From Escherichia phage ev_rybdy3, in the sequence record PQ819470.1: a stretch of 64,000 bases of DNA; one strand, given 5' to 3'. Under the pieces are notes generated by a model. The model was not told where the DNA came from, did not search any database, and saw nothing but the letters and a program-made list of their open reading frames with translations. Shown in pieces: positions 32,052 to 34,161 of the stretch; the first letter of the stretch is position 1, and every line of letters starts with the position of its first letter. The translations under genes were made by a program, and so were the position numbers.

Positions 32052-32130
32052 TCAATGGGTGCCTCTGGTAAAGGGGCACAATTTAAAGGTTAATTAGATG
32101 AAAGGGTTTACCCTTCAGGTGGATTAGAAA

Positions 32131-34161
32131 ATTTGTGGCATCGTATTAGCTGGCGGTAATCTGTCAAGCACTGATTTAGACGTATTCAACCAACTCTTTT
32201 ATGCTGGAGTATTCCGAGGACAGCACTCCTCTGGTATCTTTGGTCAGCGTAAGAGCACTAAGGAAGTCTTCACTTATAAAGAGGCACTTCCTTCTTTCGC
32301 ATTCATCCTTCAAGATGAGTACAAGAAACACACCACTGGTGAAACAGCTTACACTGTAGCACCTTCATGGATTGTTGGTCACAGCCGTCATGCAACGAAA
32401 GGTGCAGTTAACGCCAAGAACGCCCATCCTTTCCAACATGGTAACATCACTCTGGTTCATAACGGAACCTTGATGGACCAAGATCTGTTACCTGACAGCA
32501 AAAACTTCGAGGTAGACAGTGAGAACATCTGCCACTCTATTAACACTATTGGTGCAGCAGAGACTATTCAAAAGCTGGATGGTGCTTTCACCTTAATCTG
32601 GCATGATGCTTCTGATAACCGTCTTCATATCATCCGTAACGAAGAGCGTCCATTCCACCTCGCACGTTGTAACAGGGATTGGTTTGGTGCTTCTGAAGAA
32701 GACATGTTGATGTGGATTCTAAAGCGTTCTAAGTCTCACAAAAACCGAATTGATGAGCACTTTGAATGTAAAGTTGGTACAGAATATATCTTTGATATGT
32801 CAAACAACAGCATGACTCTAGTTGAAGAGGTCGCCCACGAGCTTCCGGTTTTTACGGTAATCAATCGTTGGGGCAATTACTACTCGAACAACTACAGCCA
32901 AAGCAGCTATCAAAGTTCCTCAAAAAGCAGTACAAGCAATCCTTACGACACGAAGCCGGGAGTGACAGCGGCAGACGTTCGTCGAAGAAACGCAGTGGTA
33001 AGTCAAAACAAAATAGCAAGCGATCGAAACATTGACATTCGCCGCGACATGACTGTGGAAATCACACCACATGAGTTTGTTCCTTATGCAACTGCTGGTG
33101 CTGTTCCTTCTCGTGGTAAGATGATCGGTTATATCTACGATGAGAAGTCTCAAGAGTATATCGAAGGTGATGTTCATAACGTAGACATTAAGGCTTATCA
33201 GGATGCCCTGAAAGACCCTAAAATCGTTTACCGTGGGACAGTATCCTGCATCTCCGAAGTTAATGCTATGGTTCGTTTAGTGATCACAGCAGGTCGTTTT
33301 GTTGACCCATCTCTGGAGAAAAAGGAGCCTGAGTCTACTACTGCTGACTTCGATGATGATATCCCTTTTGACATGAATGATAGTTTCGTCAATAAGAATG
33401 GCGTTACTATCACTCGTAAATTCTGGGAAGCACACTCTCACGGGGATTGTGGTGGTTGTGACAAACATATTGATTGGAAGGATGCACCTAAAGCAGTCTT
33501 CGCATATCAATGCTACTGGCACCCTGAATGTCTGGAAGGTTTGACTAAACCTAAAGATGAAGAAGAGGAGGAAACTCCTATTGGTGTTTGTGAAATCTGC
33601 GGTGAAGTTAAAACAGAGAATGAGTTCGATGAAGAACTTAGTCGTCTTCGTGGTGAAGATATCTGTAAAGTCTGCGCTGTAGATGTAAAGAAGAAAGTAT
33701 CTAATGCTACAATCAAAGATGGTTATGTCTGGATTAAAGCAACAGATACAACAAACGCCCGTCGCCCTGAATTTGCTTTACGTGTAACTGAAGATATGAT
33801 CGGTCGTATGACTGTATTACCTTCCTCAGCGAAACAGACAGGCATCACTCTGGAGGATGTTGTTGATGCTTATGTTGAGAAACGTAGCAACAGTATTTTT
33901 GCAATCTCAACTAAGCCAAAAAAGGAGGAACCTGCTGAGAAAGCAGGTGTGTTTCCTGAATCACGAACAGCTCTCCGCAAAACTGTTGTCAGCTTCGACG
34001 GAAACCGAAGCACTGACTTCACCAAAGCCATGTGGTCAACCCTCGGCTACTGCTCAGAGTGTTTTAAGCAGATTCCGTGGCGCGATGCTGAAAGTTGTAC
34101 GCTTGGTTCTATGAATCAAGTTTATTGTAATTCTCCTAAATGTTCATTGAATAGAGGTTAA
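32131..34161 (+). CDS. Class-II (Ntn) glutamine amidotransferase domain protein with Cys-rich C-terminal region; probable non-AUG (ATT) start
   Basis: I-CGIVLAGG...FRGQHSSGIFG...HSRHATKGAVNAKNAHPF matches class-II GATase N-terminal domain; Cys codon immediately follows ATT at 32131 with AGGTGG SD 8 nt upstream; C-terminus has several CxxC pairs. Confidence 0.6.
   Translation: MCGIVLAGGNLSSTDLDVFNQLFYAGVFRGQHSSGIFGQRKSTKEVFTYKEALPSFAFILQDEYKKHTTGETAYTVAPSWIVGHSRHATKGAVNAKNAHPFQHGNITLVHNGTLMDQDLLPDSKNFEVDSENICHSINTIGAAETIQKLDGAFTLIWHDASDNRLHIIRNEERPFHLARCNRDWFGASEEDMLMWILKRSKSHKNRIDEHFECKVGTEYIFDMSNNSMTLVEEVAHELPVFTVINRWGNYYSNNYSQSSYQSSSKSSTSNPYDTKPGVTAADVRRRNAVVSQNKIASDRNIDIRRDMTVEITPHEFVPYATAGAVPSRGKMIGYIYDEKSQEYIEGDVHNVDIKAYQDALKDPKIVYRGTVSCISEVNAMVRLVITAGRFVDPSLEKKEPESTTADFDDDIPFDMNDSFVNKNGVTITRKFWEAHSHGDCGGCDKHIDWKDAPKAVFAYQCYWHPECLEGLTKPKDEEEEETPIGVCEICGEVKTENEFDEELSRLRGEDICKVCAVDVKKKVSNATIKDGYVWIKATDTTNARRPEFALRVTEDMIGRMTVLPSSAKQTGITLEDVVDAYVEKRSNSIFAISTKPKKEEPAEKAGVFPESRTALRKTVVSFDGNRSTDFTKAMWSTLGYCSECFKQIPWRDAESCTLGSMNQVYCNSPKCSLNRG

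Follow-up and report, generated by a model that had tools for sequence, protein, structure and literature searches.

In this study, we examined where translation of a glutamine amidotransferase gene begins in Escherichia phage ev_rybdy3 (sequence record PQ819470.1), for which we analysed a stretch of 64,000 nucleotides (nt) that covers all but ~14 kb of the genome and is referred to here as the window. The window comes from a Kuravirus, that is a phiEco32-like coliphage, and the region in question is 100% identical in Escherichia phage ev_rybdy8 and 95-98% identical in ~60 other Kuravirus phages, among them phiEco32, SU10, NJ01 and Paul. The amidotransferase frame is open from position 32128 to its stop codon; it is preceded by an in-frame TAG, and AAA and ATT are the only codons between this TAG and the codon for the catalytic cysteine. 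Of these two, only ATT is a near-cognate start codon (one base away from ATG), and the first canonical in-frame start codons after the TAG are TTG at 32470 and ATG at 32473, codons 114 and 115 of the gene. It had been proposed in an earlier, sequence-only reading of this DNA that the gene begins at the ATT, directly after a TAG that closes a nine-codon open reading frame (ORF; called the mini-ORF below), and the bases are as described there, with the Shine-Dalgarno (SD) motif AGGTGG lying exactly 8 nt before the ATT (Table 1). The results presented here make it very probable that the amidotransferase is translated from the AUU at 32131 and that this SD motif guides initiation.

The duplex of AGGTGG with the 3' end of the 16S rRNA has a calculated energy of -5.9 kcal/mol, compared with a median of -5.95 kcal/mol for 32 long ORFs of the phage. 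The SD motif of the internal ATG at 32473 is weak (-3.5 kcal/mol), and so is that of the mini-ORF itself (AAGG, -3.4 kcal/mol, 7-nt spacer), although the AUG-AAA context of the mini-ORF is favourable. Codons 1-113 (32131-32469) contain no in-frame ATG, GTG or TTG at all, whereas codons 114-676 contain 22 (13 ATG, 5 GTG and 4 TTG); about four would have been expected in the first 113 codons, which gives a P value of roughly 0.01. A possible reason is that internal initiation is selected against where the proper start is weak. The start-codon-free stretch is absent from Aeromonas phage BUCT695, a relative discussed below, in which codon 6 is TTG.

Judged by homology, the product is a class-II glutamine amidotransferase, that is an N-terminal nucleophile (Ntn) enzyme of the PurF/GlmS/AsnB type. 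Like these enzymes it would carry its cysteine nucleophile directly after the initiator methionine, and it shares with them the R-G-x-x-S-x-G, H-x-R-x-A-T-x-G, H-N-G and V-D-S-E signatures, which are invariant within the phage family (the first as R-G-x-H-S-x-G). The cysteine at position 2 is invariant as well, both in our alignments A3 and A4 and in 55 of 55 IMG/VR loci of a first census. In A3, R29, N111-G112 and D129 do not vary, and this stretch aligns with HTRWATHG…VHNG…ETDTE of GlmS; from what is known of GlmS, we take these residues to have catalytic and oxyanion roles and the Asp to bind the amino group of glutamine. With its N-terminus the protein matches Pfam GATase_6 with an E-value of 1e-14 and 55.1 bits (cutoff 27), and it also matches GATase_7 (3.7e-6). 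A single-sequence phmmer search against the PDB returned no match, whereas the family profile matches the glutaminase domains of GlmS (1xff, E 6e-7), PurF (4e-5), AsnB and human GFAT1; in the GFAT1 alignment, positions 1-166 correspond to 1-189, with residue 1 against residue 1. The phage protein differs from the known class-II enzymes in lacking a known synthase domain and in having instead a C-terminal half of ~340 residues with four CxxC motifs; its gene also differs in being clustered with genes for two amidoligases and an ATP-grasp enzyme. The C-terminal half (residues ~330-676; 33448-34161) has no Pfam match. Its CxxC motifs, at residues 440, 487, 512 and 641, each have further Cys or His residues close by and look like modules of the zinc-ribbon type.

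Table 1. Features of the amidotransferase locus and its surroundings, numbered from the first base of the window
Feature	Position	Strand	Remarks
ATT, proposed initiation codon	32131-32133	+	would be read by fMet-tRNA as in infC
TGT, codon for the catalytic Cys at the N-terminus of the class-II (Ntn) domain	32134-32136	+	followed by GGC ATC GTA (ICGIVLAGG…)
Full amidotransferase coding sequence	32131-34161	+	676 codons plus stop (34159-34161); 76.1 kDa
Shine-Dalgarno motif AGGTGG	32117-32122	+	8-nt spacer to ATT
Mini-ORF ATG AAA GGG TTT ACC CTT CAG GTG GAT TAG (MKGFTLQVD*)	32098-32127	+	9 codons, in frame with the amidotransferase
In-frame TAG closing the mini-ORF	32125-32127	+	ends 3 nt before ATT; AAA at 32128-32130 lies between
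Invariant leader core, TTAAAGGTTAATTAGATGAAAGGGTTTACCCTTCAGGTGGATTAGAAAATTTGTGG	32084-32138	+	55 nt, 100% identical in Kuravirus and Nieuwekanaalvirus
Hairpin 1 (UGAA-A-GGG UUUA CCC UUCA)	32099-32117	+	-6.1 kcal/mol; its last base is the first of the SD motif
Stem-loop GUGCCUCU/AGGGGCAC	32059-32079	+	8 bp, 5-nt loop; just past the amidoligase stop; in minimum free energy and centroid structures
Internal ATG (Met115)	32473-32475	+	start of the coding sequence in many records; mis-annotation
Amidoligase_2 protein	30948-32051		directly upstream of the amidotransferase
COOH-NH2 ligase	29518-30324		cluster member; followed by a hypothetical protein
Two small ORFs, then ATP-grasp enzyme	34605-35798 (ATP-grasp)		downstream of the amidotransferase
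tRNA-Arg (anticodon TCT)	22545-22620		sole tRNA gene in the window

Probable translation from the ATT codon

The stretch between the ATT and the first canonical start codons evolves as protein-coding sequence. Over codons 2-114, the window differs from phiEco32, SU10 or SR02 by 9-12 synonymous and no non-synonymous changes, so that the ratio of non-synonymous to synonymous substitution rates (dN/dS) is 0. Compared with EP335 and Bas86 of the genus Nieuwekanaalvirus it is 0.07-0.08, at a dS of ~1.9-2.4, and the constraint is tighter than over the next 200 codons. We conclude from these values that the N-terminal part is translated. In the phiEco32 orthologue (phi32_83, gp83), the first 114 residues and the leader are identical to those of the window and the coding sequence (CDS) is drawn from the same ATT. 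The residue that the internal ATG encodes is not conserved, since Bas86 has Leu and EP335 has Val in place of Met115. More distant homologues, namely those of Cronobacter phages GAP52 and A24, Salmonella phage 7-11, Proteus phage P59, Pseudoalteromonas phage HP1 and Aeromonas phage 4_4572, read ATG-TGT (MCGIV…), with the ATG in the exact column of the ATT of the window.

One check suggested beforehand was whether homologous phages keep the ATT and the TAG, and this turned out to be the case: ATT, TAG and SD motif are present in 98 of 98 related records of the phage collection. Over 62 nt, 68 of these records are identical to the window, 28 have one mismatch and the remaining two are the record pair of BUCT695; in the four single-mismatch records that were read, the mismatch is a GGC>GGT wobble change at 32139. 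The same reading had regarded homologues with a conventional ATG-TGT start as a sign of a base-call error in the window. This expectation was mis-specified, because distant homologues do have ATG-TGT while ~98 independently deposited records carry ATT.

AUU is known as a rare start codon in Escherichia coli, and the mechanism that we propose is of the kind known from infC and pcnB. A 30S subunit would be placed by AGGUGG within A/U-rich, unstructured RNA immediately downstream of a small conserved hairpin (hairpin 1, see below), and initiator tRNA charged with formylmethionine (fMet-tRNA) would read the AUU, giving fMet-Cys-Gly-Ile-Val… and the N-terminal peptide CGIVLAGGNLSSTDLDVFNQLFYAGVFR. 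Removal of the methionine would then expose the catalytic cysteine as residue 1 (CGIVLAGGNLSS…). The weakness of the start codon would itself be under selection as a means of setting or regulating enzyme levels, as in infC and pcnB, and ribosomes that finish the mini-ORF may add reinitiation to de novo initiation at the AUU.

The closest parallel is infC, in which the AUU start is conserved across bacterial orthologues and is AUU or AUC, as it is in the phage family (PMC3592434, PMC5499595). In both cases an SD motif lies upstream and a stop codon precedes the AUU by 3 nt, with UAA-GGU-AUU at the end of thrS and UAG-AAA-AUU in the phage. The two systems differ in that the upstream cistron of infC is a full gene, thrS, whereas in the phage it is a nine-codon mini-ORF, and in that the AUU of infC is a sensor for autoregulation by initiation factor 3 (IF3). 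Since the phage product is an amidotransferase, any dependence on IF3 would couple its expression to the state of the host rather than autoregulate it. The second E. coli chromosomal gene that starts with AUU is pcnB, encoding poly(A) polymerase I, where the inefficient start limits an enzyme that is needed in low amounts (PMC3592434, PMC5499595, citing Binns & Masters 2002). This gene is unrelated to the phage amidotransferase. To our knowledge, pcnB has neither a conserved mini-ORF nor an invariant leader. It has been reported that AUU is 6-8 times weaker than AUG in reporter constructs and that, at junctions of the thrS-infC type, the contributions of reinitiation and de novo initiation are about equal (PMC3592434). 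Translation that depends on AUU responds unusually strongly to IF3, growth phase and temperature, and non-canonical starts of this type make up 0.004-0.024% of annotated starts (PMC5499595).

Several points weigh against initiation at the AUU. It is an inefficient start codon, and its SD motif is only of median strength; if AGGUG is taken as the pairing core, the spacing is near the long end of the usual range. Furthermore, an out-of-frame TTG at 32133 and an out-of-frame GTG at 32135, 2 and 4 nt past the ATT, open ORFs of 8 and 4 codons and could compete with AUU for initiating ribosomes; they are an unavoidable by-product of the sequence ATT-TGT-GG. The N-terminus of the protein is predicted from the sequence, and as the mini-ORF is in frame, read-through of its stop codon would be compatible with that sequence. 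The amidotransferase was detected by 9 peptides in the proteomics paper on SU10, with a quoted mass of 63.8 kDa. The short form of 562 residues has a mass of 63.7 kDa and the form of 676 residues one of 76.1 kDa; the quoted mass therefore corresponds to the short database entry, and the SU10 proteomics gives no information on the N-terminus.

The invariant leader

A mini-ORF of nine codons is by itself unremarkable. What is remarkable is the invariance of the whole leader in which it lies, which reads TTAAAGGTTAATTAG-ATG-AAAGGGTTTACCCTTCAGGTGGAT-TAG-AAA-ATT-TGTGG and whose 55-nt core does not differ at a single position between Kuravirus and Nieuwekanaalvirus. The coding DNA on either side has diverged to saturation at synonymous sites (intergenus dS ~1.9-2.4), and flanking 20-nt bins are 45-100%, mostly 55-80%, identical between the two genera. 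The leader is also kept with few substitutions in Aeromonas phage BUCT695, which belongs to the Grimontviridae: ATG…TAG-AAA-ATT-TGT is retained and the mini-ORF is still an ORF (MKGLTLQAD), with two non-synonymous changes. As far as we could find, invariance of this leader across two genera, and its nearly intact presence in another family, have been described nowhere.

Hairpin 1 is the only stable structure predicted in the leader. The pairs of its GGG/CCC core have ViennaRNA probabilities of 0.95-0.97, and in BUCT695 the stem is unchanged and only the loop differs (UUUA>UUAA). The SD motif and the AUU are predicted to be unpaired, whereas the U and G of the mini-ORF AUG would be paired within the hairpin. 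Two other foldings were considered and rejected. An alternative minimum free energy structure in which GGUUUACC/GGUGGAUU sequesters the SD motif is broken by both BUCT695 substitutions, and a hairpin formed by GGUGGAUU and AAUUUGU is stable in BUCT695 alone (-2.9 kcal/mol, compared with +2.6 kcal/mol in Kuravirus). A search of Rfam with the leader gave no family better than E = 1, and within the window we found no repeats or complements of the leader beyond chance when looking for a shared regulator site or an antisense partner.

Further upstream, the stem-loop just past the amidoligase stop has changed in stem sequence in Bas86 and EP335 while keeping its pairing (changes of the GGGCGC…GCGCCC type), and an equivalent hairpin is found in GAP52, A24, 7-11, P59, Aeromonas phage 4_4572, Pseudomonas phage FBPa8 and the metagenomic contig L070. 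It was not called by a simple terminator scan. As its tail, AAUUUAAA, is not U-rich, the hairpin may act in RNA stability or processing and not in termination, but by its predicted structure it could also be a weak terminator.

The leaders of GAP52 and A24 have TAGATGAAAGG(A)TTT in common with that of Kuravirus, for which reason the Kuravirus leader looks like the simpler GAP52/A24 leader with an insertion of ~17 nt and a change of ATG to ATT. From this comparison, it looks as if the insertion created hairpin 1 and the new SD motif. GAP52 and A24 also share TAGATGAAAGGATTT with the Kuravirus leader; in these two phages its ATG opens an out-of-frame ORF that overlaps the main start. A further element, AAATGTAA, lies upstream of the gene in several relatives, namely ~30 nt before the start in L011 and L010 (GAP52 and A24), and also in L009, L026 and L020 (BUCT695). 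It contains a minimal ATG-TAA start-stop and resembles AATGTA, the core of the promoters that are recognized by the phiEco32 sigma factor gp36.

The invariance could therefore be thought to serve a function at the level of DNA, with the leader acting as a promoter for a phage sigma factor, as an operator built on ATTAGA repeats, or as a site of homing or recombination, while ATT would still be the start codon. We regard this as unlikely, although part of the evidence is in line with it. Motifs that resemble AATGTA are found at the matching place in relatives (AAATGTAATAT in BUCT695 and CAATGTAAATA in GAP52), and in BUCT695 the gene for a GAP52-like protein stands behind a leader of the Kuravirus type, just upstream of which is a decayed ORF with a helix-turn-helix (HTH) domain. 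However, the corresponding motif in Kuravirus is degenerate (AAGGTT). The gp36 promoter element has been described as AATGTA (tAATGTAtA), centred at -11.5 (PMC12276001, PMC8948821). This element is missing from the Kuravirus leader, and the matches to TAATGTATA in the window fall elsewhere; a search for sigma-70-like promoters likewise called none on this strand. Moreover, the six mapped gp36 promoters of phiEco32 serve middle and late genes, whereas the amidotransferase cluster belongs to the early region; the sigma consensus is a different one in 7-11 and GAP52, and the window holds no further copy of the leader motif. A more specific candidate, a gp36 promoter with its transcription start at the mini-ORF ATG, was suggested by the motif of the relatives and was rejected for Kuravirus in view of the degenerate motif, the location of the mapped promoters elsewhere, the other consensus of 7-11 and GAP52 and the lack of a sigma-70 match. 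The direct repeat ATTAGA occurs at 32093-32098 and 32123-32128, with the copies 30 bp (about three helical turns) apart and both kept in BUCT695; it could be a protein-binding feature or a coincidence.

The protein of BUCT695 is GAP52-like, with 53% identity to the window protein and shared insertions, and the leader in front of it may, from its sequence, have been acquired by horizontal transfer. The DNA between the amidoligase gene and this leader, at positions 2805-3062 of the BUCT695 locus (L020), holds the unannotated remnant of an ORF whose frame is broken; it encodes an HTH_3 domain (E 5e-7) and, at its N-terminus, the motif CWLWTG…DGYP. An HNH homing endonuclease was considered for this remnant on account of the motif, and was dropped as Pfam confirms HTH_3 alone.

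Recurrence of ATT and ATC starts and the reading frames upstream

To place the ATT of the window in its family, the codon before the catalytic cysteine was recorded in ~57 non-redundant loci from IMG/VR and cultured phages. It is ATG in 42, TTG in 4, GTG in 2, ATT in 7 and ATC in 2, so that ATT and ATC together account for 9 of the ~57 loci (~16%). Beyond the Kuravirus-type leader, these codons occur in the metagenomic contigs L036, L038, L039 and L070/L071, the last pair from two samples, and in cultured Pseudomonas phages of the genus Paundecimvirus, with ATT in FBPa8 and ATC in O4 and IME180; phages K4 and Ty carry leaders of the Paundecimvirus ATT/ATC type as judged by BLAST. At each of these further loci, an SD motif lies 5-8 nt upstream (mostly GGAGGA; TAAGGAA in L039), and an in-frame stop codon is found 3-13 codons upstream, without a canonical start between it and the ATT or ATC. 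When IMG/VR was scanned again, with the other ATT lineages as the alignment, the contigs recovered were the same. The phage collection holds no cultured close relatives of L036, L038 or L070, and among these contigs only L070/L071 is replicated, in two samples.

In a crude neighbour-joining tree calculated without bootstrap, the ATT/ATC lineages are separated by ATG lineages. There are at least four: Kuravirus and Nieuwekanaalvirus with BUCT695, Paundecimvirus with L036 and L039, L038, and L070/L071. As ATG is always one base away, the persistence of ATT, whether gained or retained, implies selection for a weak or regulatable start. We have found the recurrence of ATT and ATC starts in the phage amidotransferase family described nowhere.

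The start codon varies within Paundecimvirus (L141, L142, L152, L153 and L154), in which ATT, ATC, ATG (PPAT) or TTG (PSA11) precedes the cysteine although the N-termini are nearly identical. The leader has been swapped as well, with a hairpin and GGAGGATAAAATT in some phages and TTTTTGGAGGT… in others, in front of a nearly constant N-terminal protein. The occurrence of different start codons behind different leaders indicates that start-codon strength at this gene changes quickly. O4, IME180 and L039 read ATT-ATC-TGT and thus have two adjacent near-cognate starts.

A second property of the ATT/ATC loci concerns the stop codons upstream. A stop that ends 3-4 nt before the start is found at 8 of 9 ATT/ATC loci and at 11 of 40 canonical loci; if the stop is required to close an ORF of at least 8 codons, the counts are 6 of 9 and 3 of 40. 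These counts are small and the lineages are not phylogenetically independent, but the enrichment is suggestive of translational coupling, and by analogy with thrS-infC it is possible that termination on the mini-ORF feeds the AUU start. The stop codon 4 nt ahead of the ATT belongs to a real upstream gene in L036 and L038 and to a 12-codon ORF in L070; L038 has in addition a 4-codon in-frame mini-ORF that ends 12 nt upstream. The case for coupling is weakened by the partly paired AUG and the weak SD motif of the mini-ORF, by the lack of an upstream ORF ending near the ATT or ATC in Paundecimvirus and L039, and by the fact that the lineages are few and related.

In a strict form of coupling, essentially all initiation at the AUU would come from ribosomes that terminate on the mini-ORF, so that the leader would be a device for delivering ribosomes and direct binding of 30S subunits would be negligible. 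The spacing of stop, 3 nt and AUU, identical to that of thrS-infC, the junctions in L036, L038 and L070 with the enrichment that they contribute to, and the AUG-AAA start of the mini-ORF with its 7-nt SD spacer are all in line with this idea. We nevertheless hold it to be distinctly unlikely, because the mini-ORF has a weak SD motif and its AUG is partly paired. In addition, the ATT/ATC starts of Paundecimvirus and L039 exist without an ORF that ends at them, the SD motif and the AUU of the window are predicted to be accessible to direct binding, and reporters of the thrS-infC junction show de novo initiation and reinitiation to be about equal (PMC3592434).

The second mechanism offered by the sequence-only reading fared much worse than initiation at AUU. 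It assumes that translation starts at the mini-ORF ATG, that the TAG is read through and that a propeptide of 12 residues (MKGFTLQVD-X-K-I) is removed autocatalytically. Some class-II amidotransferases do carry propeptides, that of Bacillus subtilis PurF being 11 residues long. As in such enzymes, the cysteine of the phage protein must become N-terminal, and the 12 upstream codons are of similar length; furthermore, the mini-ORF shares the frame of the enzyme, and BUCT695 retains its ATG, frame and TAG. The phage gene differs in having an in-frame TAG two codons before the cysteine and in having homologues without a propeptide: those with a canonical start all begin directly at M-C, and it is with their ATG that the ATT aligns. 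The TAG is present in 98 of 98 records, although a sense codon at this place would suit read-through better, and the tRNA scan of the window found no suppressor tRNA, only the tRNA-Arg(TCT). Most other ATT lineages do not have an in-frame mini-ORF: in FBPa8, O4 and IME180 the open frame ahead of the ATT or ATC is free of canonical starts, and L036, L039 and L070 lack an in-frame mini-ORF in the region examined. Finally, the better SD motif is positioned for the ATT and not for the mini-ORF ATG (-5.9 compared with -3.4 kcal/mol), and both BUCT695 substitutions within the mini-ORF alter the amino acid. Taken together, we consider a read-through propeptide very improbable, whereas AUU initiation is favoured by the alignment of the ATT with the ATG of homologues, by an SD motif of median strength and by the other ATT/ATC lineages.

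Annotation of the gene and possible meaning of the weak start

The ATT start is not new, but is a long-standing inference of GenBank curators that includes the type phage. The CDS begins at the ATT in the records of phiEco32 (phi32_83; EU330206 / NC_010324), SU10 (SU10_085) and Bas86 (Bas86_0076), whereas it begins at the internal ATG in those of ev_rybdy8, Paul, NJ01 and many others, and at other internal codons in those of SR02 and EP335. In literature searches, the original 2008 phiEco32 paper aside, we found no discussion or experimental test of the ATT start of the phiEco32 gene. The CDS is annotated 33 nt late in BUCT695 and 42-111 nt late in the Pseudomonas phages FBPa8, O4 and IME180; in our set, the start is misannotated and the catalytic N-terminus left unannotated at L001-L003, L006, L007, L020, L141, L142 and L154. 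These truncated annotations arise because gene callers ignore ATT and ATC.

We give almost no credence to the view behind many of these records, that the functional protein starts at the internal ATG and that the 114 codons before it are an untranslated relic or the ATT a sequencing error or inactivating mutation, since this view has in its favour only the annotations themselves and the short-form mass quoted for SU10, whereas the N-terminal codons are under purifying selection (dN/dS 0 to 0.08, stronger constraint than downstream), the part removed holds the invariant catalytic cysteine and the R-G-x-H-S-x-G motif, Met115 gives way to Leu or Val in the sister genus, the internal SD motif is weak, and the ATT is conserved in 98 of 98 records that were deposited independently. 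The sequence-only reading was right that a start at 32470 would delete the catalytic N-terminus: the cysteine is lost and the GATase_6 score falls to 23.7 bits, which is below the cutoff, so that the Pfam domain is no longer called.

Most public Kuravirus genomes, BUCT695 and several Pseudomonas phages thus present the enzyme without its catalytic N-terminus or leave ~340-420 nt unannotated. Structural, functional or comparative work that is based on the truncated protein records is work on an inactive fragment.

Returning to initiation at the AUU, conserved starts of this type are extremely rare, with two genes in E. coli, and they are informative, given that the AUU of infC serves as a sensor in regulation. 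We put forward, tentatively and as a possibility rather than as the expected outcome, that phage amidotransferases of the amidoligase/ATP-grasp cluster are a second family after infC in which the AUU or AUC start is itself under selection, usually in the arrangement SD, stop, 3 or 4 nt, AUU and UGY, and that the 55-nt leader of Kuravirus is a translational control element, which would make the output of the gene depend on the initiation fidelity of the host (IF3, growth state and temperature) or on reinitiation. A coliphage, its E. coli host and reporter constructs provide an accessible system in which to investigate why a virus picks a start codon that is sensitive to IF3, and whether short upstream ORFs deliver ribosomes to it.

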